From contig WARW01000001.1 of NCBI GenBank assembly GCA_013387215.1, positions 12,735 through 76,734 on the forward strand: a DNA stretch of 64,000 bases, written 5' to 3'. The DNA comes from Patescibacteria group bacterium (GTDB lineage: Bacteria; Patescibacteriota; Microgenomatia; UBA12405). Under the pieces are notes generated by a model that was not told the origin of the DNA, searched no databases, and worked only from the letters and a program-made list of their open reading frames with translations. This document shows positions 22,352 through 43,368 of this stretch, piece by piece (within the stretch, counting starts at the first letter, position 1; each line of letters opens with the position of its first letter). Position numbers and translations under genes: made by a program.

Positions 22352-22380
22352 AATTGATTATACCTATTATTAATATTGCT

Positions 22381-24714: not shown

Positions 24715-24854
24715 AGTAATTCAATAATAATTATTTTTCACAAAAGTATCTCATATTTAAAAATAATAAATACAAGGAAAAATACGCCAAAGTTGTTCAT
24801 TTTTTGTTCATAATTCAGTGATATACAAAATATAAATTACAAATTAAATATACT

Positions 24855-25175
24855 GTGGTTAATATAAAAAAGTTTAAATGTGATCTGTGTGATAAAGAGA
24901 TAGAAATAAATTTCCTCGGAGATATGGAAAATTTTAATAAAGACCCAAAACTTTTAGAAGAATTAATAGATAAAGGAAAACATTATCATTGGATTTATAA
25001 TCATAGAAGATGTGCAATTTGTGGAAAATTAATAGAGTCTGAAGATTTAGATTTAATCAAAAATCAGCATGGAATTCGGATAAGTGAGAATTATATAAAA
25101 GAGACATTGCCAAAAGAAAGTAATGGTGAATTGCTCATTATACATAAAAAATGCTTTAAAAATCGGTCTAAATAA
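24855..25175 (+). CDS. Hypothetical zinc-binding protein
   Basis: CDLC, H..H...H, CAICG, HKKC. Confidence 0.6.
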   Translation: MVNIKKFKCDLCDKEIEINFLGDMENFNKDPKLLEELIDKGKHYHWIYNHRRCAICGKLIESEDLDLIKNQHGIRISENYIKETLPKESNGELLIIHKKCFKNRSK

Positions 25176-25203
25176 TAAAGTTAAAAAATAACTTTAATAA
25201 GAT

Positions 25204-25539
25204 TTACATTCTTCTCCACACCACCAACGCCAATCCAATCACAAAAATAATCGAAAAAATCGTTTTATTATTTCTAGCCACAAATTTTGGCAGGAAAATA
25301 TCAAATCCATCCTCATGATTTTTCGTATATTTATAAGCCACCAAAGTCAGAGGGCAGTGCCATTTGAAAAACAGCAAAACTAAAGATTCTCCTAAAATTG
25401 TCGCAATTGAAATATAAACCAAAAGATTTTGAATATTAAAAATTCCGGCGATCAAAATATAAACAATCATTGAAGCCATCACTGCCCAAATAGAAGTGTG
25501 CAGAATTTTTATTAACAACAGCTTTGTTTTAATATTCAT
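25204..25539 (-). CDS. Small membrane protein
   Basis: Three TMs, WHCPLT and FDIFLP motifs. Confidence 0.75.
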   Translation of the reverse strand: MNIKTKLLLIKILHTSIWAVMASMIVYILIAGIFNIQNLLVYISIATILGESLVLLFFKWHCPLTLVAYKYTKNHEDGFDIFLPKFVARNNKTIFSIIFVIGLALVVWRRM

Positions 25540-25578
25540 TTTTCTGAAAAATTAAATAAATAATTTAATAATTCGATA

Positions 25579-26442
25579 TTAAATTTCGTATTCTAGGGCC
25601 AATATCTTGAAACAAGTACCATATCTGGTCCCAACTCCAAATTGTTTTTTTACCGTACTATCGCCCATTTCCACAATAGGCATTATTACACCAAACTCTT
25701 CTTGTGAATTAAAATCTTTTTGACCGTCTGAATTTTCAATGGCATATTTTATAGAAGGATTTAATATAACTTTTCTACCCTTTGGGTCAGGAACTCTTGG
25801 AGCAATAGAAATTGTCATTTCTGTTTTTAAATCTGGTGTGTCACTCAACCAATCTTGTACTTGGCTTTTATTATCTTTATTGTATAAACGAATTGTCTTT
25901 AAATCACTATCAAAAACACTTAATCGATAATATGGTTGTGGGGCTAAACCAAATTTATATGACCCATATGTTAAGGCTAATGTAGGTGGTTTTTTGTTGT
26001 CAGGTTTAATTTGTACGCGAATTTTTAAGTTTGTTAATTGGGCAGGAAATTCTTCTTTTGTCCACATACTCCAAAATTCAAAGTTTTTTACAGTCGGACA
26101 ATAAAAGCCATCATTATCCATTCTAAAATTATCAATTATCCAATTCTTTTCATTAAAACTAGCCTTTACACCTTCTAAATTTTTTGGACCAGGTGTTTCT
26201 GGCGTACCAAGCACTTGGGGATTATTTGGACAAAATTGTTGTATTATCTGAGTTTGGTTTGAAACGAAAGCAGTAAATTTTTTTTCCAAATCTTTACTAT
26301 TCCAGTAATGAGCTAATATTATTAATCCAATAATAGGTATGTAATAAACAAAAATATAAAATAAAATCGTTTTAACCCAACCATACTTTTTTATGGAATT
26401 TTGAACCTCCTCTATTTTTGGCATTTGTAAATTGTCCACCAT
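25579..26442 (-). CDS. Membrane-anchored hypothetical protein
   Basis: N-terminal TM, beta-rich C-terminal domain. Confidence 0.7.
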   Translation of the reverse strand: MVDNLQMPKIEEVQNSIKKYGWVKTILFYIFVYYIPIIGLIILAHYWNSKDLEKKFTAFVSNQTQIIQQFCPNNPQVLGTPETPGPKNLEGVKASFNEKNWIIDNFRMDNDGFYCPTVKNFEFWSMWTKEEFPAQLTNLKIRVQIKPDNKKPPTLALTYGSYKFGLAPQPYYRLSVFDSDLKTIRLYNKDNKSQVQDWLSDTPDLKTEMTISIAPRVPDPKGRKVILNPSIKYAIENSDGQKDFNSQEEFGVIMPIVEMGDSTVKKQFGVGTRYGTCFKILALEYEI

Positions 26443-27440: not shown

Positions 27441-28235
27441 CTAAATGAATTCCTGATTCTGCAAACTTCCTAAAAGTTTATATACTGCCTCCTCGTACAG
27501 GGGATGATCATCACCCAACGTCTTCATTCTGGTAATAAATTCTTGGGTTTCTTCCTCAGTCGGAATTTCACATTTTGTCACATTCCTGTCATATGGAAAA
27601 TAAATTCTATTGGCTGAATCTTCGGTAAGCTTCAAAGCATTTTCCGGGCAGCCCTCAAACTCGACAAGAAATTGTCCCAAAAGTTTGGTTGTTCCTTCAA
27701 CAGGGCCGGGTATTAAAGACTTAATGTAATACAATTCCTGTTGTCCTTCTTGGGCGTTTTTAATATACCCGTAAGCATTTGTGCCTCTGGCGCTCAAAGT
27801 TACTTTAATAATTGCATTGTCTTTTGGTAATTTGACCTCTTCAATCTCTAAACTTTCCTCTGGAGCGCTTCTTTGTTTGTCTACGTCTAAAAGTATTTTT
27901 TCGATTAATTCCTTATACTGGGGATTATATTCTTCCATTGTTTCCATATGGCTCACAAATTCGCCGATTTCCTTTTTTGTTGGTTGGCTGTAAAACTTTA
28001 CTCTGGAATCTCCGGGGAAATAAACTCGATTTGTGCTGCCTGGTGCCAGCTTTAAAGCTAGCTCTGGGCACTCAATAAACTCGTGTAAAAACTGTCCTAA
28101 AAGCATGGTTTCTTGGGTAATCGAACCCTCACGTACTTGGTCAATAAAATAAGCTTCTTTCCGATCCCTCATTGTTAAAACCACCAATGTTCTTTGCTTT
28201 GGTATAAACGGATTTTTCCTTACCATTTTATCCAT
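27441..28235 (-). CDS. Hypothetical protein with two tandem homologous domains
   Basis: LLGQFL.EF..CPE.ALKL....NR.YFP occurs twice; SD AAAGGAG. Confidence 0.75.
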   Translation of the reverse strand: MDKMVRKNPFIPKQRTLVVLTMRDRKEAYFIDQVREGSITQETMLLGQFLHEFIECPELALKLAPGSTNRVYFPGDSRVKFYSQPTKKEIGEFVSHMETMEEYNPQYKELIEKILLDVDKQRSAPEESLEIEEVKLPKDNAIIKVTLSARGTNAYGYIKNAQEGQQELYYIKSLIPGPVEGTTKLLGQFLVEFEGCPENALKLTEDSANRIYFPYDRNVTKCEIPTEEETQEFITRMKTLGDDHPLYEEAVYKLLGSLQNQEFI

Positions 28236-29041: not shown

Positions 29042-30853
29042 ATGTCAAGAAACATTGAGAGTCCAAGTTTCGTACAAATCAAAGAAGCTTTGGCTTGTCC
29101 GCATATTCAAAAAACCGCTCGCCCTATTGGTGTCGACTTGTTTTATTCGGATCTGGAAAGTGCTAAGGAAAGAAGACAGCTTTTGGAAAAAATGAGCCAT
29201 CTTTTTGATCAGATTCCAGACCTAAACATGGATGTCGATACCGCTTTAAAAAATAATTTAATTAGCTCTGAAAACTTATCTAATGTTTATCAGGATTTAT
29301 CTGATTTCATCAGCTCAGATTCCAATCATTCTCGTTTAGCTTTATATCTGCCTTTCCAAATTATTCCCAATTTAAATCCAGACAATTCAAAAAATATAAC
29401 CGAATCTCAGGTTAAATTTGCTAACGTCTATAAAAATGCTTGGATGCAATTGTTGTTTGAAAGTGATATTCGGGCGGATTTTTTAAACGGAGACACATTA
29501 GAACCAGGCCTAGGCGAACCAGCTCGAGTCAGAAAAGCAGCCCATTTAATACCGGAAATTTTAAAAAAGGGAATTATTGATAAAGAAGATATTGACTTAA
29601 TATTAGAAATAAATAAATCAGATGATGAATTATGCCATTCAATTAACGAAGGAGTAATTGCCTACGAGAAATTAAATAAATCAGAAAAATCTGAGGAAAC
29701 TTCAGAAATTTTTGATTTAGATAATTTAAAAAAAGAACTGGCTCTTATTGATAAAAATTACGGACCAAATTCAGAAAATATTTCCAAATTAAGTCTAAAG
29801 GAAAAATACGATTCGCCCAATCTGCTTGATTCAAAAATCAGCCAAGAAAGAGCTGCTTGGATAAGAAGAACTAAATATGGAGAAACTTTAAATAAATATG
29901 CCCAAAAAATTCATAATTTTAATACCATTGATTCTTTATTAGAAGCAGATGAACCAGTCTATAAAATACTTGGCTTAAAAGCGATTTTTAATCAAAATCA
30001 ACCGACTGATATCTTTGATAAATTAATTGAGGAACAGTGGTTGACTGGTAATAATCAAATCAAGGAAGCAATAATTACCGGCCTAAGTTATTGGCAAAAA
30101 AATAATCTAATTTCTTCACATTACCTAGATCGATTCGGAATTAAAATTCCTGATTTATCACAACCGTTTTCAGTTGATTTAGATAAATTAATTTTGTCCG
30201 ACCTTAAAAATATGACAGAGGCTGTAGAAGGAATTAAAAATGAATCAATTCTTTCTGAAAATATTTATCCAACCATATTAGTATTTGGATCAAGAGTCAA
30301 AGGATATTCTGGTCTTGATTCTGATTATGATATCGCTGTCTTTTTTAAACCAAACGCCTTAATTGATAACCGGAATTCAATTCTTCAATCAATCAAAGCG
30401 ATTCCTTCATTAAAAGAAGTAGGGAAGATATGTGAATTTTGGACAACCGAAAATGATGGAAAAATAGGTCTTAGACCAATCTCAGAAAAAGTTTGGGGCA
30501 TGATTGGACCGGAACAAATTCACTTTTTATTTGGAGGTGCTTGGATTGGTGATAAAACCGATATAAATAAAATACAGCAGGATCTTTTGGAAAAATATTG
30601 TGATTTATCAAGATTTGACCATCAAAAAGATTTGGTACGATCTCGCTTGCTGGGTAATTTAGAATACGATATTCTTCAATGCCGTCTTATGCATAAGGGG
30701 TATCGAAAATTTTATCCTGATAAAATTGATCCGAAAATTAAAAGTATAAACGCTATTGATGGAAATAGTGCCTTTTGGGATCCTGGGTTTAGACGAGTGG
30801 CAACGCAACTTTTTTTGAGTAGAGTATTTTTACCTGATTTATCGGGTAAATAA
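29042..30853 (+). CDS. Large protein with Pol-beta-superfamily nucleotidyltransferase domain
   Basis: FGSRVKGY..LDSDYDIAVF motif after a long helical N-terminal region. Confidence 0.7.
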   Translation: MSRNIESPSFVQIKEALACPHIQKTARPIGVDLFYSDLESAKERRQLLEKMSHLFDQIPDLNMDVDTALKNNLISSENLSNVYQDLSDFISSDSNHSRLALYLPFQIIPNLNPDNSKNITESQVKFANVYKNAWMQLLFESDIRADFLNGDTLEPGLGEPARVRKAAHLIPEILKKGIIDKEDIDLILEINKSDDELCHSINEGVIAYEKLNKSEKSEETSEIFDLDNLKKELALIDKNYGPNSENISKLSLKEKYDSPNLLDSKISQERAAWIRRTKYGETLNKYAQKIHNFNTIDSLLEADEPVYKILGLKAIFNQNQPTDIFDKLIEEQWLTGNNQIKEAIITGLSYWQKNNLISSHYLDRFGIKIPDLSQPFSVDLDKLILSDLKNMTEAVEGIKNESILSENIYPTILVFGSRVKGYSGLDSDYDIAVFFKPNALIDNRNSILQSIKAIPSLKEVGKICEFWTTENDGKIGLRPISEKVWGMIGPEQIHFLFGGAWIGDKTDINKIQQDLLEKYCDLSRFDHQKDLVRSRLLGNLEYDILQCRLMHKGYRKFYPDKIDPKIKSINAIDGNSAFWDPGFRRVATQLFLSRVFLPDLSGK

Positions 30854-32290
30854 GTATTCGTATCCTGATCTTATTTTTCTATCTTTTGCTTTTGGTCCCC
30901 ATCCTTCAGCCACTACTGGAATTTGGATCTTTTCTTCAACATAATCCAAAAAAGTATCGACCATTGTTTTGTTATTTTCGGGTTTAAGGGTAGATAAAAT
31001 TGGCTGGCATTGATTAAGTAATTTAGTCAATTGCAGTTGGTGTTTATAATGAGCTTCGTCTTGAGTATTAGGATAAATTTTAATTCCAGTAATGATATCG
31101 TTTTCCATTTCAAAGTAGTCTTCCAAATTAGTATTTTCTCCATTAAATTTATAGCCCTCACAAATCTGCCACTCATTTTTTTGAGATAAAACATCAAGAT
31201 AACTGATCATTAGACCGTCAAAAGATTTCTTTCCGCCGCTAATTTCAACAGCATATTTCATGGCCACAATATCATAATTACCATTTCTAAATTCTCCCAG
31301 CCATTCAGTCCAATTATTGTGAGTTTCCTGAATTGAATCAGTCATTTCTCGATTAAAACTAACCAGTGGGCCGGCTCCATGGCGGGTCATATAGCATCGG
31401 CTAACACCAATTCGGACTATCTCCCCTGAATAATTTTGTTTTTGAAGAGTGCCAAGAATATCTTGAGAAGTTGGATCGATTTGAGTAGTGTGAGGAATAA
31501 AGCCGTACCATGGGTGTAAAAGTGCACCATGAGAAGTTTCGCAGACCACTAAACCTTCTTGTGACAGCATTTCATTTAAATAATTATCGTCAACAATTTT
31601 GAACAAATCGGCAGTGTATTTGAATGATTTGGCAGTTGATCCAACAAAACTTTGATCATAAAGTATTTCCAATTGTTCATATGCTTCTTCCGGCAATTGA
31701 TCTAATCCAAGAATTAGTTTTTGAGCTTGTTGAATTTTATTTTGCCGGATATTTTCTATTTTTTGGCACAAAGTTTCTTCATCATCGCTAAAATCGCCGG
31801 CTCTGATTGTTAGTTGTGGATCTTTTGAATCTTTTATGGCTTCGCCAACCCCCATACCAACTGTTCCTTTCTTGTCTTTACCTCGCATAATTTCGCGAAG
31901 TCGGCTTATAGCCCGGTGAAACGGAGTTATGGAAATACATTCTTTATCGATAGTTATTAAATCGAATGGATTTTTTACTCCCTTTTCTTCAACCTCAATA
32001 GCCTCATTAAAGAGATCAGTCGGGCAGATTACCATGTGTTTTAAGTGAGTTTTAGCGCCGTCAAAAGTACCAGCCCCAAAATGGCTAAACATTTGTTCTC
32101 GCCCATCTTCGGCTGTAATATGGTGTCCGGATTGGCAGCCTCCTGATCGCCAAACAGTATGAGCATTAAGCATTTTAGTAAAAGCTTCAACTGTGTTGCC
32201 TTTGGTTTCTTCGCCAATACCTAAACCAGTAACCACAATGACTTTATTTTTGGGCTTTTCAAAATTAATATTTGAAATTATTTCTTTCAT
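30839..32290 (-). CDS. Divergent adenylosuccinate-synthetase-family ligase (copy 1)
   Basis: GLGIGEETKG, GGCQSGH, GTVGMGVG, TRHGAGP, GWGP; Asp-binding TTGR loop absent. Confidence 0.8.
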   Translation of the reverse strand: MKEIISNINFEKPKNKVIVVTGLGIGEETKGNTVEAFTKMLNAHTVWRSGGCQSGHHITAEDGREQMFSHFGAGTFDGAKTHLKHMVICPTDLFNEAIEVEEKGVKNPFDLITIDKECISITPFHRAISRLREIMRGKDKKGTVGMGVGEAIKDSKDPQLTIRAGDFSDDEETLCQKIENIRQNKIQQAQKLILGLDQLPEEAYEQLEILYDQSFVGSTAKSFKYTADLFKIVDDNYLNEMLSQEGLVVCETSHGALLHPWYGFIPHTTQIDPTSQDILGTLQKQNYSGEIVRIGVSRCYMTRHGAGPLVSFNREMTDSIQETHNNWTEWLGEFRNGNYDIVAMKYAVEISGGKKSFDGLMISYLDVLSQKNEWQICEGYKFNGENTNLEDYFEMENDIITGIKIYPNTQDEAHYKHQLQLTKLLNQCQPILSTLKPENNKTMVDTFLDYVEEKIQIPVVAEGWGPKAKDRKIRSGYEYLFTR

Positions 32291-32291
32291 A

Positions 32292-32342
32292 AACCTTTCG
32301 TCCTTTTGGACTCATCAGTATCGATACGCATCGATAGAGGTT
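32292..32342 (-). ncRNA. Type III hammerhead ribozyme (HH1)
   Basis: AACCU-C, stem I UAUCGAU/AUCGAUA, CUGAUGA, stem II GUCC-AAAA-GGAC, GAA, AGGUU; cleavage predicted after C at 32337. Confidence 0.93.
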
Positions 32343-32404
32343 GAATAGCTAAAAGCCAGTCTTTAAATTAATAAAGATAGCTTTCAGCTATTCTGTAAAG
32401 AGTG

Positions 32405-33556
32405 TTAGAACTTATTCCAATTGATTCCGCTTCCAGGCTGTTCATCCTTTATTGGTTGCTCTACAACAGTAGTTGCATCGTGCCCGATAGGCCAAATGTC
32501 GCGAAGATTGGCGAATTTGTCTCCAGGTTTGGGGATTTTATTATATCCGGGTAACTTCGCCTGGGCGCCAAAAAGCGGTTTTGCAACCTGCAGCCATCCC
32601 CATAGACGATTAACATCGCGTTGTGAAATATGATCATTGGAATTGCCAGCCAGCAAGAATTTGTTTAAACCGTCTTCGGTAGGTTGCAGAGTCTCTGTAA
32701 CATAAATTAGCCCTGCTTGAGCTTCGGCAAGTAGGTCAGGGTCAGGAATTGAAATAACTCTGTCTTCACCTAAATATTGCTGCCACCAGTAGATATTTGA
32801 ATTATTATGGCCAACATTAAGGTAAAACAAATGCCATTTTGATATCAGGCTTTCACAAACCTTTTTCAATGAAACCTTTTCGCTTTGCATGGTATGACCT
32901 AAATATCTTTCAACATCATGTTTGGTTACATACTCCCTGCAATCAGCATCAGCACCTAAGAAGAAATAACCTTTAAGACCGTAGTTTATAATGTCGACTT
33001 CTGTCTGATTATCGACATACCACAAACCAAGTTGATAATCTTCTGTCCAATCATCGCCATCTTTATCGGGAACCAATAACTCAACATGTTCAACGGCGCG
33101 ATTATCAGATTCAAATTCGGCCATTTGGAATGGAGGGTGGTCATCTTTTACATCCTGCAGAACGGCAACGGACAGATCTATTTGATATCTATCCTGTAAT
33201 TCTGACAGCATACAATAGACCTTCCCCATTGCCTTAAGAGCAAGTGCTACTTTTTCGCCCATTGAACCGGTTCCGTCTGTTCCTAAGATAGTCGGTAATT
33301 TAATACCTTTTGCCAATATATATATTTTTTTTCCAGCCTCATCCAACAGCACCATCGCGTTACGAGAAAGACGTTTAACACCAAAAATATTAACATTTTG
33401 ATGTAATTTGCCAGTTTTTTTGAAAACTTCATGACCTTTCTCATGAACAGTTTCGGTAAATCTCACCCCTTTCGTTGTTGCTCTTTCTTCCATTTTTCTA
33501 ACGGTTTCTACATGCTTCACTGCATTAAAAGTAGAGGTATCTTGCTTCCTTGCCAT
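32405..33556 (-). CDS. VWA-domain protein (copy 1)
   Basis: MIDAS-like DGTGS, PFQMAEFES, EDYQL, KGYFFLGAD; aligns with 38215-39762. Confidence 0.75.
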   Translation of the reverse strand: MARKQDTSTFNAVKHVETVRKMEERATTKGVRFTETVHEKGHEVFKKTGKLHQNVNIFGVKRLSRNAMVLLDEAGKKIYILAKGIKLPTILGTDGTGSMGEKVALALKAMGKVYCMLSELQDRYQIDLSVAVLQDVKDDHPPFQMAEFESDNRAVEHVELLVPDKDGDDWTEDYQLGLWYVDNQTEVDIINYGLKGYFFLGADADCREYVTKHDVERYLGHTMQSEKVSLKKVCESLISKWHLFYLNVGHNNSNIYWWQQYLGEDRVISIPDPDLLAEAQAGLIYVTETLQPTEDGLNKFLLAGNSNDHISQRDVNRLWGWLQVAKPLFGAQAKLPGYNKIPKPGDKFANLRDIWPIGHDATTVVEQPIKDEQPGSGINWNKF

Positions 33557-33587
33557 TTAAATCAACCCTTTCTTTTTTTAATTTTTT

Positions 33588-34553
33588 TTACCTTGGATAC
33601 GTCCGAAATTCATGAAATTGTCTTTTTAACCCTTTTCCATCCCAAGTCGGTTCTTTTGGCCAAATTTCATCAGATAGTTTGTAAAGATCATCAAACTCCT
33701 CCCCAGCAGCTTTAGCATCACCATCCATAATTCTTCGTAAGAAAGAAACATACTTATCGTAAGCATCTTTACTCATAATTTCCGAATCATAAGGCGGATT
33801 TGATTTTTCAGTGCCTCCGGCTGCTTCCCAGGCTATTTTTGCCGCTGCCACAACTTCTCGAATCTTATCGGCATAACTCGGATCTCCCTTAGTATTGGAA
33901 AAATCCAGTATAAATACTCCATGAAGTGCAGTTTCGACAAGTTCATTGTCGGCATTAACCAATCCAACCGTTAAATCAAAACTGTGGACAAAATACAGCA
34001 ACTTCAAAAGTTTTCCAAATATCCATTGGACACTTTTCAAATCAACCCTTTCCGTTGCTGTTATTACCGATAGTGGTGTTAATTGTTTATAAGAATTTAT
34101 ATTCTCGTGGTATCCCAAAAACAAAGCTGTTCTGTCTCCGGCGTCAATTTTTTCAATTAACTTCGGAAACATCGATCCGTAAAATGCTGGAGTTTCGTTT
34201 TTGCTTATCGCTTCCTGATCTAGTTCATGAGCAATTCGTTGAAGCTTTTTGAGCGTTAATGCTTCATTGTTAAGAACATTATTGCGCTCACTGCTGTTAA
34301 CGATTTTCATTAATCCGAATTGACTTGATGGTAATTTTGCTGCATAAACTCTAAATACGCTTGTTTGGGCTATTGGTAATGGATTTGGGTTATCTCCGGA
34401 TTTTAAACCGAAAATTTCATACTGGCCATTCAATCCATCGTAAAAACCCATGCTGATTAAATTAGATTCAGCTGGATTTTCACTTGGAACTAATAAGGCG
34501 ACATTTAACACTAAATCCGTTAGCCATCCTGTTGAAGAATCATTTTTTGGCAT
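33588..34553 (-). CDS. Protein-kinase-fold protein lacking HRD catalytic Asp (copy 1)
   Basis: LMKI, NEA..L, VQWIFGKLL, VGLVNADN, ILDFS. Confidence 0.65.
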   Translation of the reverse strand: MPKNDSSTGWLTDLVLNVALLVPSENPAESNLISMGFYDGLNGQYEIFGLKSGDNPNPLPIAQTSVFRVYAAKLPSSQFGLMKIVNSSERNNVLNNEALTLKKLQRIAHELDQEAISKNETPAFYGSMFPKLIEKIDAGDRTALFLGYHENINSYKQLTPLSVITATERVDLKSVQWIFGKLLKLLYFVHSFDLTVGLVNADNELVETALHGVFILDFSNTKGDPSYADKIREVVAAAKIAWEAAGGTEKSNPPYDSEIMSKDAYDKYVSFLRRIMDGDAKAAGEEFDDLYKLSDEIWPKEPTWDGKGLKRQFHEFRTYPR

Positions 34554-34556
34554 TTT

Positions 34557-34754
34557 TCACACCCCTCTCATTAATTCATTCATAAAATATTTCTTAACGT
34601 TTTTTCGTTCTCTAAAGTATTCATGGATGTAGCTTCTTTCTTTAACTTTAAACTCCTTTCTCACCTGACTGATGTCTGACTCTTCAGAAACAGGTAATAA
34701 TGAAGCAAAACATAAAACTAATCCAGTCAGCCATTCCTCAGGTGTTTTTCTCAT
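34557..34754 (-). CDS. Small 65-aa protein sharing N-terminal motif with the kinase-fold proteins
   Basis: SD GAAAGGGTG; EEWLTGLVL resembles TGWLTDLVL and QSWLTGVVL. Confidence 0.75.
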   Translation of the reverse strand: MRKTPEEWLTGLVLCFASLLPVSEESDISQVRKEFKVKERSYIHEYFRERKNVKKYFMNELMRGV

Positions 34755-34786
34755 TCCGATTCACCCTTTCTATTACTAACACTTTA

Positions 34787-34798
34787 TTGTTAAAGAAC
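34787..34798 (-). promoter_or_regulatory. boxA-like antitermination motif
   Basis: GTTCTTTAACAA preceded by a hairpin; one of about 10 similar leader motifs in the window. Confidence 0.6.
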
Positions 34799-34847
34799 TT
34801 TTAATAAGATCATGACCGCTTTGACCAAGATCTTACCCAGATATCAT

Positions 34848-34908
34848 CCCAAATTCCTTTCGTCCTTTTGGACTCATCAGTATCGATACACATCGACAGA
34901 GGATTGGG
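34848..34908 (-). ncRNA. Type III hammerhead ribozyme (HH2)
   Basis: UCCU-C, stem I UGUCGAU/AUCGAUA, CUGAUGA, GUCC-AAAA-GGAC, GAA, AGGA; cleavage predicted after C at 34899. Confidence 0.93.
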
Positions 34909-34975
34909 GGAGTTTGTTTTTTTTATTGAGTATTGATACTCAAAACAAACTCCGCCCGGGACTATCATTTGATTT

Positions 34976-35395
34976 TTAGATTCTAATCCGTGAATCAGCA
35001 GGCCTGATGCCTTTTTGGTAAACCAATTGCATTAGTACCTTTAGTTGCGGACCAAAATCCTTTTTCAGATCTTCAGGCATAGTATTAAGAAACTGGTAGT
35101 CATCCTTGAAAAGAAAGCTAGATAAACTAGTCAATTCCGGATTTTTTTCAACCAGACTCAAATATGCCTCCCTGGTGGCGGTTGTAAACACTTCTTTGGG
35201 AGCACAGGCACGCAGGGTTAAGATGTGAACAGGTTTCATCGTATTCCAACCAGTCTTATGTTCGGAAAACATGTTGGCATCCATACGTTCTGCATTCTCA
35301 AATAACCAAGTGGCAACTTTGGAAACATCTTCCTCTTGAATTATCCTCAGATAATCCCTCAGGAAATCATTACTTGCGAAAGGAATTGCCTCCAG
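34976..35395 (-). CDS. Hypothetical protein, start uncertain (possible CTG)
   Basis: Protein-like helical frame filling the gap; AAGGAGG 9 nt before in-frame CTG at 35395. Confidence 0.55.
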   Translation of the reverse strand: MEAIPFASNDFLRDYLRIIQEEDVSKVATWLFENAERMDANMFSEHKTGWNTMKPVHILTLRACAPKEVFTTATREAYLSLVEKNPELTSLSSFLFKDDYQFLNTMPEDLKKDFGPQLKVLMQLVYQKGIRPADSRIRI

Positions 35396-36488
35396 CGGGT
35401 CGGTCCTCCTTAGACAGTTTTTCCCATGGAATCGATGTACCGAGTTGTAACAGGGCAGCAAGATATGCATATTCATATTGGCCAGCTGTTACTTTCGGAT
35501 ATTCCATAATGGACAAAGCATACCTGGTGATACTACGCTCCATTCTGACATAATCAGCTGAAACATTCACATCAAGCATTTTGAGCATCTGTTCTTTGTT
35601 GGCGGCGCCAATTTGAGCTGGTAGGGCTGAATTTTCCAAAACCTCTTTGATTCTGTTGGCATCCAATGCTAAAGCCCTGGCAATCACGATACCTGTGCCG
35701 GCAAAAACCTTGTTGATCTTATCAATCACACCTTCAGCTCCATCGCGCAATGCGCTTGTATCGGGTGGCTGCTGCATCATACCTGCTGGCATTCCTGCTT
35801 GGCCTCCTGTTGCATAAATAGCAAGAGCCATCATTGCTGTAGGAGCTACTCCTTGCTGGTACGAATTAACCCATGACACAACCTGCTGGTTGTACTCGTA
35901 GAGTGCTGGCCAGAGATTCGTCCTGAGTTTATTGAGCAACGCGTCTTTCTTTCCCTGGGTTACGCTGGCACTGTCGATGTCGAGAGCCTGGAAGATTTCT
36001 GCATAATTACGTTTGGTAACCAGTTTCTGCAGCTTGTAGAAATCTTCTCCGCACGGTTCTTCCTGTTCTTCGGCAAATTTTTCCATCCGGTCCATAATGA
36101 TTTTGGGCAATTCGTAAAGACCGCTTTTGTCTGCCAATGTTGCCCTGATGGCTGCAATAATTTCAGTTATGCCGATTTTCAGCTCTCCACCTATTTTCAG
36201 CATGGCTAAAAATGAGGTATCGTCCGGAACCTGTGGCAGAACGTCCATTGACGGTTGAGCTGCTGCTGTTGCAGTTGCTTCAATTTTCGGTTTTTCCTCC
36301 TCTTTGGGTTTGAATGCTGCCGCAATTTTTTTTGCTACCACAGCACCGCATCCGGCATAAGATTTGATCTCGTCGGCTGACAATAAAACCATGTCCGCTT
36401 CAGTCATTACCCCTTCAGTTTCCAGTTTTGCAATTTGGTCTTCTTTAAGTCCGAGCTCGGTTAGCCTCAGTTTCAATGTTTCTTCCAT
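35370..36488 (-). CDS. Hypothetical protein with N-terminal SAM/HhH-like domain
   Basis: LTELGL..QIAKLE.EGV..EADMVLLS.DEI..G.G.V.AKKI pattern, linker, helical domain; ATG after GAAGGGAG; visibly more GC-rich than flanks. Confidence 0.7.
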   Translation of the reverse strand: MEETLKLRLTELGLKEDQIAKLETEGVMTEADMVLLSADEIKSYAGCGAVVAKKIAAAFKPKEEEKPKIEATATAAAQPSMDVLPQVPDDTSFLAMLKIGGELKIGITEIIAAIRATLADKSGLYELPKIIMDRMEKFAEEQEEPCGEDFYKLQKLVTKRNYAEIFQALDIDSASVTQGKKDALLNKLRTNLWPALYEYNQQVVSWVNSYQQGVAPTAMMALAIYATGGQAGMPAGMMQQPPDTSALRDGAEGVIDKINKVFAGTGIVIARALALDANRIKEVLENSALPAQIGAANKEQMLKMLDVNVSADYVRMERSITRYALSIMEYPKVTAGQYEYAYLAALLQLGTSIPWEKLSKEDRPAGGNSFRK

Positions 36489-36670
36489 AACAAAATCTCC
36501 CTTCATCTTTGAAATCACCACTATACAGTCATATCCATATTTATGACTAATGGCTTGCTGGACACAAATTTTGTACCCAAAAAGCCACTAGTCATTTATA
36601 TTCAAATGATAGTCTTTGTAAAAATTTTTTTCTTTCACCAGCTTTTGGTGTAAATCAAAAAATCCTTACT

Positions 36671-36724
36671 TTGTTAAAGTGCAAATTTAGCCTATAGCTT
36701 AGCACAAGGGATTGCTGTAGTCAA
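36671..36724 (-). promoter_or_regulatory. Sigma70 promoter and boxA-like motif of operon copy 1
   Basis: TTGACT-17-TAAGCT with TG extension, followed by GCACTTTAACAA. Confidence 0.65.
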
Positions 36725-36806
36725 TCAAAAATTATTGATCATTACCGTAATATTTTTCGTAATCATAAAATATAATCATAAACTTATAATAATTAAAATT
36801 TTTACC

Positions 36807-36865
36807 AAAAAAAACCTCAATTTAGAAATTAATTAGCATTCGCTAAAAAATTTCACCATTGAGGT
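36807..36865 (-). terminator. Intrinsic terminator of operon copy 2
   Basis: ACCTCAAT...ATTGAGGT long hairpin followed by U-tract. Confidence 0.65.
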
Positions 36866-36866
36866 A

Positions 36867-38213
36867 TTAAATATCAATCGAAATCTTTTGATCTCGATCA
36901 GGGCCAACTGAAATTAAACCGATAGGAACGCCTAATTGTCCCTCGATATACTCCAGTAAGCTTCTAGTTTTAGAAGGTAAGTCTAAATAATTTTTGATAT
37001 TTGAAATATCATCTTCCCATCCTGGAAGGGTAGTGTAGACAGGCTGGCAGTTCCAAAGCAATTTCGACATTACTTCATCCTGCTTTTGCAGTTTCACTCC
37101 TACAATCTGATTATTGGGCCCGAAATCAAAGTATTTGTTTAAGGTTTCTTCGCTCTCTTTGCCGATATATCGGTAAGAATTTGCAAATTTGATTTCTTTT
37201 AAACCAGACATTTTGTCCAAGCAGGACACTACCAGTTTGTCGATTCTTTTGTTCACTTGAAGCGAATATCTAAGCAGTACAAAATCTAGCCAGCCTTGTC
37301 TGACAAATCTTTGCCAAGGAGTATAAACGTTATGAGTTTCTTCCAGATTTAAGTTTTCATCTACTGTTGGAAATGGTCCTGCCCCATGTCGGACACTGTA
37401 TGGTCTTAATAATCCTAGTATAACCGCTTCTTTTTCTCCAAGAAGTTCCAATGCATTAGCTATGGATGTCCTAGTCTGGGTGATATTTGGTTTAAAACCA
37501 TAATCGCAATCCAAAATTGTGCCCTGAGCTGCCTCAAAAATATTATTTTGAGTTTGGATTATCTTTTGTATTTCTTCATCACTTAAAATACCCACCCTTT
37601 TGGTAAGTTCCAAATAAATTTTAGCCAATCCTTTTGGTGAGTACATTTCAAACTCTTCTAAAAGTATTTTTGTTTCTTCGTTACTGGCTAGCTGTTCTAT
37701 CTGGTCAAGTTTTAACATCTTTAGTGTTTTTAGCTTGTATTCCAGATCAGGTCTCAACAGATCTTTCGCTCTAATACTAAATGCAGGATTTGTCCTTTCA
37801 TCTATAACCGTTTCTCCAACACCTCTTCCGCAAGTTCCTTTTTTGGTTGTTCTTAGTATTTCTTTTATCTTTCCGCAGATTATTTGGTAGGGGGTAATTA
37901 CTAAAGAGTTTTCTGATATCAATAATTTTTCAAATGGATCAGAAATACCCTTAGTTTCTAGTTTTTCTCCCTCTACCAAAATTCCGATTGGATCAATCAA
38001 AGTAAACTTTGAAATTATAGTTTTTAAACCAACAAAGGTTCCGGATCCGAATTGGGAAAAGGTGTGGTGGATCCCACTCGACACCACATTGTGAGCACAC
38101 TGAGATCCACCGCAATATCTGACCACATTTCCTCCATATTTTGAGGCTAAAAAATCAACCATTGATCCTTTACATTCGTCACCTTTATCTAGGCCCACAG
38201 TTATCCAATCCAT
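36867..38213 (-). CDS. Divergent adenylosuccinate-synthetase-family ligase (copy 2)
   Basis: GLDKGDECKG, GGSQCAHN, GTCGRGVG, EAAQG, VRHGAGPFPT, GWLD, ISVGPDR. Confidence 0.85.
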   Translation of the reverse strand: MDWITVGLDKGDECKGSMVDFLASKYGGNVVRYCGGSQCAHNVVSSGIHHTFSQFGSGTFVGLKTIISKFTLIDPIGILVEGEKLETKGISDPFEKLLISENSLVITPYQIICGKIKEILRTTKKGTCGRGVGETVIDERTNPAFSIRAKDLLRPDLEYKLKTLKMLKLDQIEQLASNEETKILLEEFEMYSPKGLAKIYLELTKRVGILSDEEIQKIIQTQNNIFEAAQGTILDCDYGFKPNITQTRTSIANALELLGEKEAVILGLLRPYSVRHGAGPFPTVDENLNLEETHNVYTPWQRFVRQGWLDFVLLRYSLQVNKRIDKLVVSCLDKMSGLKEIKFANSYRYIGKESEETLNKYFDFGPNNQIVGVKLQKQDEVMSKLLWNCQPVYTTLPGWEDDISNIKNYLDLPSKTRSLLEYIEGQLGVPIGLISVGPDRDQKISIDI

Positions 38214-38214
38214 C

Positions 38215-39762
38215 TTAAAGTCTCCTTGTCTTTGACCCTGTTGTCTTGTTTACAGGTTTATTGTCGGGCATTTTCATATCGACTGTAATTTCTGGCACCA
38301 AACTATTGTCCAGTGGCCTTAAAGCAGTTTCGATGTCATTTTGCCGTTCTATGGTTTGATCTCTATCACGCATATCCTTGATGTAGTCTGACAATTCTCG
38401 GCCTCCGTATCTTGCCAAAACTCCGATAATCAAATCAACAATTCCTTTTGGATCTTTCAATCTTAAAACATGATCCTCGGGAATTACCGATGACCATTGC
38501 GCCACGATCACGTCGTCTTGGTAGTTAGCATATTTATCCTTTGTTTCCGTTATTCTTTGTTCTGGATCATAATCAAACTCCAGAATTAGTATATTACTGT
38601 TTTCCCTTGTCTTATAAGCTGGCATTACCTTTTCAAAATGCTGTATTTCACCATTGATTTCAACTTCCACAGTAAACTGTGTTTCTATACTTTCTGATTG
38701 GTGAAAAGCATAGTTTTGAACATACACTTTATAGTGTCCTTTTCTGGCTCTGCCTTTTTCCCATCTGATATTTTCCACAGGTTTTGTTGTTTCCCCGTGC
38801 ACATTCATATCTACATCCAAAAAACCTCCACACGGAGCCTTTTTGTTCTCACTTGGATAGTAAATATGAAAACCAGATGGGGTAATCACATGTAAGTCCA
38901 AGTCATTGGTGTTGTGCCAAATCAGTGAAACCCTAATATCGACTCCCTCATACAAGCCCCCGGCTCTTTCGACTCTCTTTTTGATCTCATTATCAATATC
39001 AGTTTTTCTTTTTTCCCATGTTTTTTGCGGGAAAATAAAGAATACTTCATATTTATCCTGAAGATCAGCAAAAACTTTCTTTGAGTCTAGGTCTTCGGGA
39101 ATATCATCGCCGATTATTCTTTTGACTTCATCTTTCGATACTTTGTCATAAAATCCTTCATCGCCAATGAAAAAAAGATAACCTTTTTCTCCGCGGTCAT
39201 TAGCCTCCAACGTTGAGTGATAAGCATAAAAATAACCCATCAATTCATAGGATTCTTGCCCGGTGCCGCCGCCGCCTTTTTCTGGCCACATGCATGAAAG
39301 CACTTCATCAATTTTGTCGTCATAATAAAATTTGCCGACTTGAATTGGTGCTTTGTCAAACTTAGCGTCGCCCAAACCAGCAAAACTAATCACTGGATTA
39401 AGAACGTAGCCCTTCATATTTATTTGGCCAATGAGCATTGGGACTTTTTTGTCGATTATTTCAATATCCTTTCCGCGTGAATCGGTAAAATCTGAAACCA
39501 CTACGATTGGTGTTACTTTTGCTGCTATGTTACGGATAAAATCCAAACACTGTCGAAATGCATTTTTTGGATCAAGACTAGCATGAACCACTCTTTCTTT
39601 TGTAGCATTTTTACCCACCACATCATATTGATATTCTGTATTCACACTGCTTGTTCCCACGCTTCTTTCGTAAAAAACCATATCAGATGGTCCATCGCCG
39701 TCTCCGCCTCCCATTAAAAATGGTGCCAAAAAAGCACAACGCAGTATTCTTAAAAATTTCAT
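38215..39762 (-). CDS. VWA-domain protein with inserted YfaP/DUF2135-like domain (copy 2)
   Basis: DFTDS, GGGGTGQESYEL, KGYLFFIGDE; insert VSLIW..NDLDLHV..PSG..GG.LDVD..PVENI. Confidence 0.8.
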   Translation of the reverse strand: MKFLRILRCAFLAPFLMGGGDGDGPSDMVFYERSVGTSSVNTEYQYDVVGKNATKERVVHASLDPKNAFRQCLDFIRNIAAKVTPIVVVSDFTDSRGKDIEIIDKKVPMLIGQINMKGYVLNPVISFAGLGDAKFDKAPIQVGKFYYDDKIDEVLSCMWPEKGGGGTGQESYELMGYFYAYHSTLEANDRGEKGYLFFIGDEGFYDKVSKDEVKRIIGDDIPEDLDSKKVFADLQDKYEVFFIFPQKTWEKRKTDIDNEIKKRVERAGGLYEGVDIRVSLIWHNTNDLDLHVITPSGFHIYYPSENKKAPCGGFLDVDMNVHGETTKPVENIRWEKGRARKGHYKVYVQNYAFHQSESIETQFTVEVEINGEIQHFEKVMPAYKTRENSNILILEFDYDPEQRITETKDKYANYQDDVIVAQWSSVIPEDHVLRLKDPKGIVDLIIGVLARYGGRELSDYIKDMRDRDQTIERQNDIETALRPLDNSLVPEITVDMKMPDNKPVNKTTGSKTRRL

Positions 39763-39785
39763 TTTAAAAACCCCTTTCCTTATTC

Positions 39786-40694
39786 TTAAAATTCAAACAC
39801 TTGGAATCCGATATCTCCCCATATTTCTTTCCTCAATTCGTACAGTTTTTTTGCCATATCCCATGCATCCCTAGCCCTTTGTATTGGACTGGAGATTAAA
39901 AAGTTTTCTATAAATCTTTGGAATCGGGGGTCAACAGTATCAGGAAGACTATTATCCTCAAGATTGCCACCCAAAAGGTAAATCATACATTTACCAATGG
40001 AATACATATCTGAAGATTCTTTTGGTTCGTCTTTTTTCTGCACCTCCGGAGCGCTGTAATCATCATTTACTGCCCTAAAACCAGCCTTATTTATTGAAGC
40101 ATAACTCCAATCAATCAAACAGGCATTATGGTCATCTTTATGATTAGTCAGCAAATCCACAGGTTTTATGAGAATGTGTGCCGGTTCAATATTGCAATGA
40201 AATATTCCTTTACTATGGGCATATCCCACTGCTGCTAAAATTCGGCACAGCATCCAGGCGGCATGATAATCGGGAACTCCCGACACATACAATGGATGTT
40301 CTCTGATTTGGTTAAGGTTGAAACCCTCAAACTTCTGAAGAATTATCCCCACCGTCTTTTCTTTTGTTTTAAATCTATCCAGGAATTTTGGCAAATGAAC
40401 TTGGTTTTGGTTTTCTTCTGCAAATAATGCATTTAAGATTTTTATCTCATTATTTGCAAACTTATTGTCGATTTCTTCTTTGATTACTTTAACAATGATG
40501 TTTATGCTTTCGCTTTCATTGGCAAAATAACCCTCATAAATCATCGACAAGTCGCCCTCACCAATAACTTTGTTGACGTGGTATTCACGATTTTTAATCG
40601 TTATTACCCAGTCCAGTTTCTCAGATTCATTTGTTGCATTTGAAGCCCCTAAAACTACACCAGTCAACCAGCTTTGAGGATTTTTTTCATCCAT
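39786..40694 (-). CDS. Ser/Thr-kinase-fold protein with HCN in place of HRD (copy 2)
   Basis: IGEGD, IIVK, NEIKIL, HCNIEPAH, LIDWS, SAPE, SDMYSIG; ATG 40694 after GAAAGGGTG. Confidence 0.8.
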   Translation of the reverse strand: MDEKNPQSWLTGVVLGASNATNESEKLDWVITIKNREYHVNKVIGEGDLSMIYEGYFANESESINIIVKVIKEEIDNKFANNEIKILNALFAEENQNQVHLPKFLDRFKTKEKTVGIILQKFEGFNLNQIREHPLYVSGVPDYHAAWMLCRILAAVGYAHSKGIFHCNIEPAHILIKPVDLLTNHKDDHNACLIDWSYASINKAGFRAVNDDYSAPEVQKKDEPKESSDMYSIGKCMIYLLGGNLEDNSLPDTVDPRFQRFIENFLISSPIQRARDAWDMAKKLYELRKEIWGDIGFQVFEF

Positions 40695-40713
40695 TTTTAT
40701 CACCCTTTCTTTA

Positions 40714-41319
40714 TTAATCAGTTTCGATTTTGATATCAAACTTTTGCTTTTCTATACACAGCTTTTGAGCAATTTCCACCTGGTCGTAAAAATTCTTTTT
40801 TATTATTTTTTCATTCATCCCAAATTCTTCTACATCCCTTTTAATCCTCCTTTCCAATCTCGTTTTTGAACTCGCCGACATAAAAATATTTACTTTTTGC
40901 TCAAGATTTCCAATAGCTTCGCTGATCATTGAAGCATATAATCCTTCAACGATAATGTATTTTTGGGAAACTATCGCTTTTGTACCTACTCTCATGTTTG
41001 TTCTAATATCGTAATCAGGAAACATAACTTCTTTTTCTACTGAAAGTTTTTTGATATAACCTTTCATTTCTTCAATATGATAAGAGCTTGGCATATCAAA
41101 CGATCGATAACCGCTTATTATTGGCAAAGAATTATCGTTTTTGTTTTTAAAGCAATCATCCATTTCTACAACCACACTCTCATCATTCAAAAACTCTTTA
41201 AGTAATTTAGCTAAATATGTTTTGCCTGAACAACTGCCGCCGCTGATAAAAATAAAATAGGGGAAAACTGAAGCCTCTTTAATTTTGCTTATTAACCAAT
41301 CTACATTCAAATCAATCAC
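40714..41319 (-). CDS. Uridine kinase-like P-loop kinase
   Basis: GGSCSGKT, MDD, FDMP, IIVEG, RLERRIKRD. Confidence 0.82.
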   Translation of the reverse strand: MIDLNVDWLISKIKEASVFPYFIFISGGSCSGKTYLAKLLKEFLNDESVVVEMDDCFKNKNDNSLPIISGYRSFDMPSSYHIEEMKGYIKKLSVEKEVMFPDYDIRTNMRVGTKAIVSQKYIIVEGLYASMISEAIGNLEQKVNIFMSASSKTRLERRIKRDVEEFGMNEKIIKKNFYDQVEIAQKLCIEKQKFDIKIETD

Positions 41320-42061: not shown

Positions 42062-43120
42062 ATGAATAAATTGTTTGATTTTGAAGCGCATCCGCAAGCT
42101 GCTTGGCTAACCACCAACAGAGATTGTGATGCCAGGTGTCCACATTGTTATGCCCAAGGAACTCATTATGATCCTGCTGATGATATGACTATCGAAACTG
42201 CCAAATCACTTCTGGCTTTACTTGTTAGTATCGACATAAAGCTTGTCACTACTTTAGGAGGAGAGCCGCTGCTTTGGAAGCCGTTGTTGGAATTCAATCG
42301 GATTGCCAAAAGCTTGGGTATTACTACCAAAATGGCAACAAATGCATTTCGTTTTGGTGATAATGAATTTTGGCAAAGATATCTAAAAAATCCTTGTGAT
42401 TCCGTCGGTATCTCTATCAAAGGAGTCGGCGCCGAAATGCTCAAAAGATTGGCTAATGTCACAGATTATGAAAAAGCTGAAAAAGGTATTAAACGAGCCA
42501 TGAATTTTTACAAAAATGGCGTTGGTACGGTTTTTAGCAGCTTGATGACTCTCGACGACCTGTGGAAAATTGCCGAAACTACCCACGAATGGGGAGCAAA
42601 AACATTTTCCATTGGATTTGCCTGTGCCACTTTGGACTCAGAAGGTTGCCCTTCGAAGAAAAACTATATGATTAAGCTCGACAAAATCGAGGAGTTCATC
42701 CAAGTATACGAAAGAATCGATGAGCTTTTTGAAGGCAGTGTTGGTTTTGAACCCCAGCTTCCGTTTTGTTTATTCAGGGAAGATTTTATTGATAAGTTGA
42801 TTGATAAGGGTCAGCTGTCGAATGGTTGTTTTGTCAACAGCCGCGGCGGATTTACCTTCGATAAAGATGGTAATGTTTTGATCTGCAACTCGATTTATCA
42901 TGAACCTATCGGAAGAATCGGCAAAGATTTCACCGATGGCTCCACCCTGATTAATCATCTTAATAGTGAACCTATCAAAGATATTTTCAGGGAGCTTTTG
43001 CGTTATCCGTCCGATGTTTGCCTGGCCTGCCGCTACAACAAATACTGTCGTGGAGGCTGTGTTATCAATTGGACTGCTTTAACGCCAGACATATTACAGC
43101 CTGTTTTAAAGGAGGTGTAA
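42062..43120 (+). CDS. Radical SAM/SPASM-domain peptide maturase
   Basis: CDARCPHC, GGEP, SPASM cysteines GC..DGNVLIC..CLACRYNKYCRGGC. Confidence 0.9.
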   Translation: MNKLFDFEAHPQAAWLTTNRDCDARCPHCYAQGTHYDPADDMTIETAKSLLALLVSIDIKLVTTLGGEPLLWKPLLEFNRIAKSLGITTKMATNAFRFGDNEFWQRYLKNPCDSVGISIKGVGAEMLKRLANVTDYEKAEKGIKRAMNFYKNGVGTVFSSLMTLDDLWKIAETTHEWGAKTFSIGFACATLDSEGCPSKKNYMIKLDKIEEFIQVYERIDELFEGSVGFEPQLPFCLFREDFIDKLIDKGQLSNGCFVNSRGGFTFDKDGNVLICNSIYHEPIGRIGKDFTDGSTLINHLNSEPIKDIFRELLRYPSDVCLACRYNKYCRGGCVINWTALTPDILQPVLKEV

Positions 43121-43122
43121 TC

Positions 43123-43368
43123 ATGGATAAATTTTTAAACAGTTTAAACAAAATTGGTTCGAAAGAAACCGAACCTGTCCAACCCTTATCTCCAACCTGT
43201 GCCAAATCCCATTGCGCTTGTGAACATTGCGAATGTCAATGTCAGTGTCAATGCCAATGCAGCCCGAGTCAAAAAGATATCGAAGATATTGTCAAAAAAA
43301 CAGTCAAAGAAGTTAGTAAGGAACAGAAAAAAGACAATAATAACGATAACAACGATAACAACAAATGA
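43123..43368 (+). CDS. Cys-rich putative RiPP precursor peptide (81 aa)
   Basis: ATG after AAGGAGGT; core CAKSHCACEHCECQCQCQCQC (9 Cys); directly after the rSAM gene. Confidence 0.8.
   Translation: MDKFLNSLNKIGSKETEPVQPLSPTCAKSHCACEHCECQCQCQCQCSPSQKDIEDIVKKTVKEVSKEQKKDNNNDNNDNNK

Follow-up and report, generated by a model that had tools for sequence, protein, structure and literature searches.

The PurA fold is known for coupling aspartate to inosine monophosphate (IMP), as in adenylosuccinate synthetase (PurA), or to deoxyguanosine monophosphate (dGMP), as in PurZ. The TerY-P triad brings together a vWA protein, a PP2C phosphatase and a kinase. We analyzed a module in which a PurA-like enzyme is encoded beside a vWA protein and a kinase-fold protein, and which lies in a 64,000-nucleotide stretch (here called the window) of contig WARW01000001.1 (C1 in our numbering), part of a genome of 1.31 Mb that is 98.6% complete. 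The nearest named homologues of the module proteins are from Patescibacteria, of the candidate phyla radiation (CPR), and a protein in one same-genus genome is labelled Shapirobacteria. A known counterpart is that of cluster C mycobacteriophages (Bxz1, I3, Bread gp257-259), in which a 'PurA-like adenylosuccinate synthetase' belongs to the same trio, in the same order and with the same signature residues. That trio stands as annotation only, no functional study of it having been found, and to it the window contributes a further subtype, additional genes and ribozymes. A sequence-only reading of this DNA had proposed a three-component system with no characterised function, in which the PurA-fold enzyme would be something other than an ordinary adenylosuccinate synthetase; the system is indeed conserved and apparently uncharacterised, and both co-location and active-site changes bear the proposal out. 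All ten of the minus-strand open reading frames (ORFs) that it placed here were recovered in a check of the ORF list, with the order kinase-fold, vWA, PurA-like found twice in tandem:

39786..40739, minus strand: kinase-fold protein, copy 2, likely start ATG 40694 (Pkinase E 1e-15; family alignment)
38215..39762, minus strand: vWA protein of copy 2, carrying a YfaP/DUF2135-like beta domain as an insert (fold prediction, structure search; phrog_2971)
36867..38213, minus strand: PurA-like enzyme, copy 2, 448 residues (PF00709, active-site alignment, structure model)
33588..34553, minus strand: kinase-fold protein, copy 1, 321 residues, strongly degenerate (phrog_3043 E 1e-6)
32405..33556, minus strand: vWA protein, copy 1, 383 residues, with an invariant D-x-T-x-S resembling a metal ion-dependent adhesion site (MIDAS) (alignment of the two vWA families)
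30839..32290, minus strand: PurA-like enzyme, copy 1, 483 residues (PF00709, CPR clade alignment)

Both PurA-like genes match PF00709 (E 1e-73 and 6e-47), with scores of 197 and 107.5 bits that fall far short of the purA cut-off of 395.55 (TIGR00184). The structure model of copy 2 has a mean predicted local distance difference test score (pLDDT) of 96 and a template modeling (TM) score of 0.80 to E. coli PurA. Residues are numbered here by alignment to E. coli PurA, with ungapped offsets from motif anchors used for the subfamily counts at positions 129, 143 and 305, and we take D13, K16, H41, Q224 and D333 to play the roles that they play in that enzyme. Copy 2 resembles PurA (EC 6.3.4.4; PDB 1ade, 1cg3, 3hid) in fold, at 29% identity, and keeps D13, K16, H41, Q224, T239 and D333; T129 is changed to C and V273 to H, and R143, T300, T301 and R305 are lost. 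These features extend across the main family, where D13, K16, H41 and D333 occur in 65/65 rows (6 of those rows canonical), the V273 position is an invariant H, and T301 and G302 are replaced by W and Q. Position 129 is C in 117/118 and 121/122 subfamily rows, with R143 lost, and position 305, which is R in 17/17 parsed canonical rows, is hydrophobic (F, V, I, L or W) in no fewer than 111/116, 121/126 and 90/91 subfamily rows. Unlike PurA, the module enzyme reads H-N-x-x-N-x-W-Q in its aspartate loop, with R303 variable, and has a fixed vWA neighbor. Both window copies lack T300, T301 and R305 of the aspartate-binding loop, and in both the contacts to the IMP 5'-phosphate are gone (C or V at 129, no R143). 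Copy 1 carries the further changes D13E, T129V and Q224H, and its clade has E at position 13 in 94/106 rows, H at 224 and I or V at 129.

PurZ/PurZ0 of Z-genome phages (PDB 6fm1, 7odx, 7vf6) is likewise a re-tooled PurA paralogue found in phages, and belongs to the same PHROG family. Unlike PurZ, the module enzymes carry Asp (copy 2) or Glu (copy 1) rather than Ser at position 13 and have lost the aspartate loop; identity between the two groups is 12-18%, and the partner genes differ. No datZ, mazZ, dutZ or dpoZ was recognized in the recurring neighbor clusters or in general scans of the window, neither of which was a family-specific search. By these active-site residues, the module enzyme is neither PurA nor PurZ. 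In a published survey, about half of 767 sequences lie outside both named groups, without comment in the accessible part of that source (PMC12884076). The window's genome also encodes a third PurA-family protein of 339 residues, of the short archaeal type (contig C10:17441-18460, plus strand). Position 13 is Ser instead of Asp and the aspartate loop is intact, which is the PurZ/PurZ0 signature in a bacterial chromosome; the gene has no recognizable Z-pathway, vWA or kinase neighbors. No PurB-family match was found in the whole genome.

The neighborhood of the enzyme was surveyed in genome loci (the best 80 of 574) and viral loci (the best 80 of 489). Of these, 28 were truncated at a contig end and 7 carried canonical viral PurA; with both groups set aside, 125 with full flanks were left. 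Homologues lying apart from vWA genes would have counted against the sequence-only reading, but they are co-located with a vWA gene elsewhere: one adjoins the enzyme in 60/62 genome and 63/63 viral loci (123/125), and a kinase-fold gene does so in 48 genome and 51 viral loci (99/125), as counted with neighbor profiles built from these same loci. The canonical viral PurA loci had neither (0/7 with vWA, 0/7 with kinase). Most often the kinase gene comes first, followed by those of the vWA protein and the enzyme. The vWA protein and the PurA-like enzyme therefore form the core pair, with the kinase common but often missing in Nocardia. Module hosts comprise actinomycetes, Chloroflexota and CPR bacteria, as well as plasmids and large phages by the hundreds, mycobacteriophages used in laboratories among them; the enzyme matches 201 Mycobacterium phage records, and annotated examples of the trio include those of mycobacteriophage Bread and of plasmids from Rhodococcus and Agrobacterium. 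A scan of viral contigs with the copy 2 protein alone gave no match, the viral loci having come from a scan with the family alignment. Two or three vWA genes surround one enzyme in five loci, and in a Bdellovibrionales assembly (L019:5432-8302) the vWA and PurA-like parts form a single fusion ORF. The literature searched did not describe the trio, most subscription journals lying beyond that search, and the accessible text of PMC9503650, PMC7824862 and PMC7159879 mentions neither PurA nor adenylosuccinate.

Neither vWA protein was named by Pfam, PDB sequence search or PADLOC, and in the Atlas the vWA protein falls in unnamed clusters, with vWA families only at 0.82. The fold call of the sequence-only reading was nevertheless borne out by structure prediction and structure search. 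The model of copy 2 aligns with integrin I-like/vWA domains over about 195 residues (Z 15.0, root-mean-square deviation 3.1-3.2), vWA domains fill the structure-search list, and the top Foldseek match is archaeal ArnB, a vWA protein that with its kinases (PDB 8s05, 5a8j) sets a vWA beside a kinase fold as the module does. The two vWA families align at 100% probability, indicating that they are one family. Copy 2 has an insert at approximately residues 256-400, named YfaP/DUF2135-like after source labels. The inserted domain is also found, without the vWA part, in phage proteins of Salmonella, Klebsiella, Bacillus and Caulobacter that number in the hundreds.

The vWA proteins nearly always have a Met-Gly start. 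The conserved start of copy 2 lies not at its first Met but at its second, position 39714, where the sequence reads Met-Gly-Gly-Gly. Of vWA ORFs in the examined loci, 145/156 begin M-G-x(1-3)-aromatic; Met-Gly begins 116/120 best homologues of the copy 2 protein, and Gly2 is present in 58/68 distant vWA cluster representatives, against a background of 17/797 Met-Gly starts among long ORFs of this genome. The first 40 residues of the lone vWA model have a pLDDT of 47-60, as would be expected for a tail that is ordered only by a partner. Copy 1 starts Met-Ala, and in its clade Gly2 is relaxed (5/18 closest vWA homologues); the sister group (L205, L206) keeps both Gly2 and D13.

Pkinase matches the kinase-fold protein of copy 2; that of copy 1 matches only phrog_3043. 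The catalytic-loop Asp was found in 2 of the 80 family members that could be parsed (42 of 122 were not), copy 2 having Asn at this position, and we predict from these sequences that the kinase-fold proteins of both copies are pseudokinases. An N-terminal HPD motif of the J-domain type occurs in 82/122 kinase-fold proteins, though in neither window copy. The sequence-only reading had compared the module with TerY-P triads. What stands is the vWA gene beside a kinase-fold gene; unlike TerY-P, there is no PP2C phosphatase among the 17 genes scanned at 25.6-44.2 kb, the third member is a PurA-fold enzyme and the kinase is predicted to be dead, which leaves a loose analogy.

NrtR and NAMPT genes are among the recurring neighbors of module loci. 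Within the best-80 sets, NrtR stands beside 43/45 actinomycete loci, 1/35 other genome loci and 9/80 viral loci. A GT-N7-AC palindrome lies directly upstream of the first gene in 7 loci by a strict scan of 82 loci, which also returned unrelated matches in 4 NrtR-free loci. Two genes found as targets of NrtR, nrtX and nrtY, presumably encode an SPFH protein and a kinase-like protein. The palindrome is the NrtR motif, and ADP-ribose the NrtR effector, in the part of the NrtR regulon study that was accessible (Rodionov 2008, PMC2330246); the same ADP-ribose-responsive regulator thus also adjoins actinomycete module copies, and none is present in this genome. The main text of that study never mentions PurA or adenylosuccinate and does not identify the unexplained nrtX-nrtY targets. 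The link to nicotinamide adenine dinucleotide (NAD) is real in actinomycetes and absent from the window's genome, in which searches for IMPDH, NAPRTase/NAMPT and NrtR families gave no match (none to PF21906). It is not general, because NrtR is also rare in non-actinomycete and viral loci. In a Rhizobium phage, nicotinamide mononucleotide (NMN) adenylyltransferase/NUDIX and phosphoribosyltransferase (PRTase) genes lie near the module. A PurA-family gene is linked to ADP-ribose genes, together with NUDIX, in a second setting, namely operons that join a DarT-like ADP-ribosyltransferase (Lmac_3114 family) to adenylosuccinate synthetase (bioRxiv 10.1101/2024.07.30.605764), with no vWA mentioned in the portion of that preprint available.

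We favor the interpretation that the PurA-like enzyme uses guanosine triphosphate (GTP) to couple a 6-oxopurine nucleotide to Gly2 of its vWA partner, to which we assign a probability of roughly 0.35. It is favored because the phosphoryl-transfer residues are kept, the carboxylate pocket is gone, and the enzyme has an obligate partner with an invariant N-terminal glycine on a loose tail. The suggestion in the sequence-only reading that the enzyme ligates an amine and a nucleotide fits the same pattern of retained and lost residues. The retention of D13, K16, H41, Q224 and D333 points to GTP-dependent phosphorylation of O6 of the nucleotide, as in PurA, and the loss of R305, T300 and T301 to a nucleophile that would be an amine without a free alpha-carboxylate. 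The 5'-phosphate may be substituted or bound differently, as in an inosine compound that resembles ADP-ribose or NAD, because T129 is changed to C, R143 is lost and NrtR is linked to the module. The acceptor would be the free N-terminal glycine of the vWA protein, and the dead kinase would serve as an accessory regulator. The purpose might be to tag or trap such nucleotides under NAD/ADP-ribose stress, a role that would make sense in bacteria and in large phages alike. Also in favor are the near-constant vWA neighbor, the loci with several vWA genes around one enzyme, the fusion ORF, the relaxation of Gly2 in the clade where D13 becomes E, and NrtR with its palindrome at actinomycete loci.

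Several points weigh against this interpretation. Free ammonia or a small amine would fit the lost carboxylate pocket equally well, and a conserved Gly2 can also be explained by docking, by removal of the initial Met or by some other modification of the N-terminus. In the copy 1 clade, Gly2 and D13 were lost together in a single evolutionary event, and some of the extra vWA paralogues beside the enzyme begin Met-Ser (L082, L203). The vWA-PurA-like fusion is known from one assembly and may reflect a lost stop codon. Nocardia loci often have no kinase gene. This genome has no match to NrtR, NAPRTase/NAMPT or IMPDH, and outside actinomycetes NrtR adjoins only the single genome locus and nine viral loci counted above.

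An alternative that we rate nearly as probable is that the enzyme makes or repairs a small molecule by adding ammonia or a small amine to a deaminated nucleotide, such as IMP, inosine triphosphate, or inosine forms of ADP-ribose or NAD, with no need of PurB. The vWA protein would then be an obligate activator that docks by its Met-Gly tail, with the J-pseudokinase aiding assembly. This reading draws on the same active-site pattern and on the absence of a PurB match from the genome, and it is consistent with NrtR and its palindrome in actinomycetes, with viral loci that in some cases hold NAMPT and NrtR genes in one stretch, with the Rhizobium phage genes, and with the pyruvate-kinase-like and uridine-kinase-like genes inside CPR versions of the module. 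It leaves unexplained the invariant first glycine and the presence of several vWA paralogues per enzyme, and this genome has no NAD-salvage or NrtR match. The CPR genes in question are carried by copy 2 types. In four loci, CPR versions and one from Woesearchaeota, a 305-residue pyruvate-kinase-barrel gene lies between the vWA and PurA-like genes, and its product could regenerate GTP.

The PurA fold might instead act mainly as a GTP or nucleotide sensor, or as a phosphotransfer module, for the vWA protein and pseudokinase in a conflict or stress switch, the product not being a C6-amine adduct. We consider this unlikely. Patchy presence (5/132 genomes of the order), carriage by phages and plasmids, the persistence of the degenerate D13E form in approximately 100 CPR proteins and the invariant new Cys and His of the active site all speak for it, but the catalytic set is fully kept in the main family and no effector or toxin domain recurs in the neighborhood. 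The defense role raised by the sequence-only reading is not upheld: PADLOC 2.0 system profiles gave only generic kinase and NTase matches to the component genes, leaving the vWA and PurA-like proteins unmatched, and large lytic phages are common carriers of the module.

Synthesis of a modified base for DNA or RNA, in the manner of PurZ, seems quite improbable. It would account for the PHROG label '2-aminooxy adenylosuccinate synthetase' and for carriage by large phages, and the altered phosphate site could admit a polynucleotide; against this, Asp13 is kept where 147/147 phage PurZ have Ser in the part of PMC12884076 available, the aspartate loop is lost, and no polymerase or dNTP-hydrolase gene occurs among the 30 largest neighbor clusters. 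Ordinary adenylosuccinate synthetases that supply AMP beside chance neighbors are hardly credible despite PF00709 and the PurA fold, given scores far below the purA cut-offs, loss of the aspartate and IMP-phosphate residues, a separate clade, a near-obligate vWA neighbor and no PurB.

The tandem arrangement had been described as a duplication. Two tandem sets are indeed present, but identities and trees make them two old paralogous subtypes rather than the product of a recent duplication. Between copies, the PurA-like proteins are 29% identical and the vWA proteins 27% identical over 163 residues, and BLAST gave no alignment of the kinase copies. Each PurA-like copy has far closer relatives elsewhere (85% and 61% identity), and the two fall in separate supported clades of a 114-row tree. 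A sister relationship was rejected in a 24-row quick tree, with a log-likelihood 396 lower and p-AU 2.6e-10. Two other genomes of the genus carry a single type each, copy 1 in one and copy 2 in the other; of the 5 genomes of the order with the subfamily, the window's alone has two copies. A standard-type enzyme lies directly ahead of the copy 1 lead genes at locus L235, and a tandem of both subtypes may thus recur elsewhere. For the claim that the copies have separate promoters, a consensus scan gave no support, with 34 promoter-like sites against 42 in shuffles, so that only the intergenic gaps suggest them. Copy 2 is the standard form and copy 1 a CPR-restricted derivative with two extra genes and a convergent nucleotidyltransferase. 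The chemistry of copy 1 is likely changed or lost because of D13E and Q224H and because Gly2 is not conserved.

The remaining features associated with the two copies are these:

40714..41319, minus strand: uridine-kinase-like P-loop kinase, 201 residues, accessory of copy 2 (PF00485 E 3.5e-13, under the udk cut-off)
36536..36600, minus strand: long RNA hairpin directly upstream of the first gene of copy 1 (predicted -31.5 kcal/mol for 36530-36610)
35370..36521, minus strand: protein of 372 residues from ATG 36488, HhH/SAM-like N-terminus (conserved partner of copy-1-type modules)
34976..35476, minus strand: small protein, likely about 139 residues from a putative CTG start at 35395 (homologues at the same place)
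34854..34904, minus strand: predicted hammerhead ribozyme A of type III, preceded by a strong hairpin (expected to cut between 34899 and 34898)
34557..34754, minus strand: 65-residue ORF (N-terminal likeness to kinase copy 1)
32292..32342, minus strand: predicted hammerhead ribozyme B of type III, preceded by a strong hairpin (expected to cut between 32337 and 32336)
29042..30853, plus strand: Pol-beta-type nucleotidyltransferase, 603 residues, convergent, overlapping the end of copy 1 (PF18765 E 4e-7)

The copy 1 type travels with the 372-residue gene, the small gene and the convergent nucleotidyltransferase, the last of which the sequence-only reading had missed. Homologues of the 372-residue gene adjoin the module in nine loci (L019, where homologue and kinase precede the fusion ORF, and L168, L205, L206, L225, L235, L245, L260, L281), those of the small gene occupy the same place in seven (L168, L220, L225, L235, L241, L260, L265), and the nucleotidyltransferase keeps its convergent position in eight (L168, L205, L206, L215, L245, L252, L261, L264). 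The 372-residue protein has two weak viral matches, no Atlas match and no full-length relative among 400 genomes of the class; its proposed HhH/SAM-like start is echoed faintly by a Rad51-N match (E 0.007). The 65-residue ORF shares 9/14 identities with the N-terminus of kinase copy 1 and is not conserved, relatives having other short ORFs there; it is likely, from this sequence, a remnant of the 5' end of the kinase gene. The uridine-kinase-like gene of copy 2 also lies ahead of the module in two other genomes (G003, G144).

Two hammerhead ribozymes, also missed by the sequence-only reading, are predicted inside copy 1. Two 47-nucleotide repeats that are 96% identical (32294-32340 and 34856-34902) carry the hammerhead core, both having CUGANGA...GAAA and a U-H cleavage site (2 matches against 0.05 expected), and minimum free energy folds of both give a three-way junction. 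Their matches to RF00008 (E 0.014 and 0.032; 28.6 and 27.3 bits) lie below the gathering score of 48.5, at which level Rfam found only tRNAs. In a same-genus genome, ribozyme B stands at the corresponding junction and carries compensatory changes. Scanning for an exact 25-base match gave 78 metagenome loci, 15 of them in copy-1-type operons (some redundant), and the architecture is type III in 79/83 of the cores examined. Among 49 distinct rows that have an 18-nucleotide stem-loop I, 99% of 735 cells are paired and 6/7 stem I pairs change on both sides, a covariation above all 500 shuffles and all slid controls in rows pre-selected for a stem and with stem II fixed by the search pattern. The hammerhead family is a general feature of these genomes and not of the PurA-like module, because most other members lie shortly after unrelated genes. 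The genome has four more hammerhead-like cores, at C11:11621 (minus strand), C11:16861 (plus), C15:180893 (plus) and C15:181618 (plus); three directly follow small secreted-looking genes of one repeat type, and one lies between a long gene and a PRTase-like/PP2C-like pair.

Ribozyme B ends 5 nucleotides ahead of the start codon of the PurA-like gene and overlaps its ribosome site; the distance is 7-9 nucleotides in five distinct relatives and 24 in one, these being orthologues rather than independent cases. The 3' strand of stem III probably doubles as the ribosome site of the PurA-like gene, which cleavage of ribozyme B would then release. If both ribozymes cut, the copy 1 transcript would fall into three pieces. 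Clustered hammerheads that flank bacterial or prophage genes and cut bacterial polycistronic RNAs are known (Perreault 2011, PMC3088659), and in the accessible part of that study they too have type III cores and stems, with several per predicted transcript and one near a start codon. Unlike the cases in that part, the window's ribozymes stand at fixed junctions of a CPR enzyme operon, one over a ribosome site, and score below the Rfam gathering level. Combined with glycine coupling, these elements suggest a fuller proposal that we hold only tentatively: a new post-translational modification, common to bacteria and to large phages, in which an inosine-type nucleotide, possibly deaminated ADP-ribose, NAD or an immune-signal nucleotide, would be joined through C6 to the vWA N-terminal glycine as a covalent sink or switch, the CPR version being dosed gene by gene by hammerheads, one of which would gate translation of the enzyme.

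Three further observations concern the surroundings of the modules. The GC content is 25-29% at window positions 22000-26000, against approximately 35% elsewhere, and this segment adjoins an orphan-gene island that holds both modules. A 264-residue orphan at 27441-28235 (minus strand) has an internal two-fold repeat and no family match. At 42062-43368 (plus strand), beside two tRNA genes, a Radical SAM/SPASM gene is followed by a short Cys-rich ORF (C-A-C-E-H-C-E-C-Q-C-Q-C-Q-C), likely a maturase and peptide precursor pair.

The module enzyme represents a third, very widespread branch of the PurA fold, outside the criteria for both PurA and PurZ. If it modifies a protein N-terminus with a purine, this would be new chemistry; if a NAD-linked nucleotide is repaired or made, the module would provide a new salvage or counter-defense route. 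The predicted hammerheads, for their part, would be a naturally occurring example of a ribozyme that overlies a ribosome-binding site.

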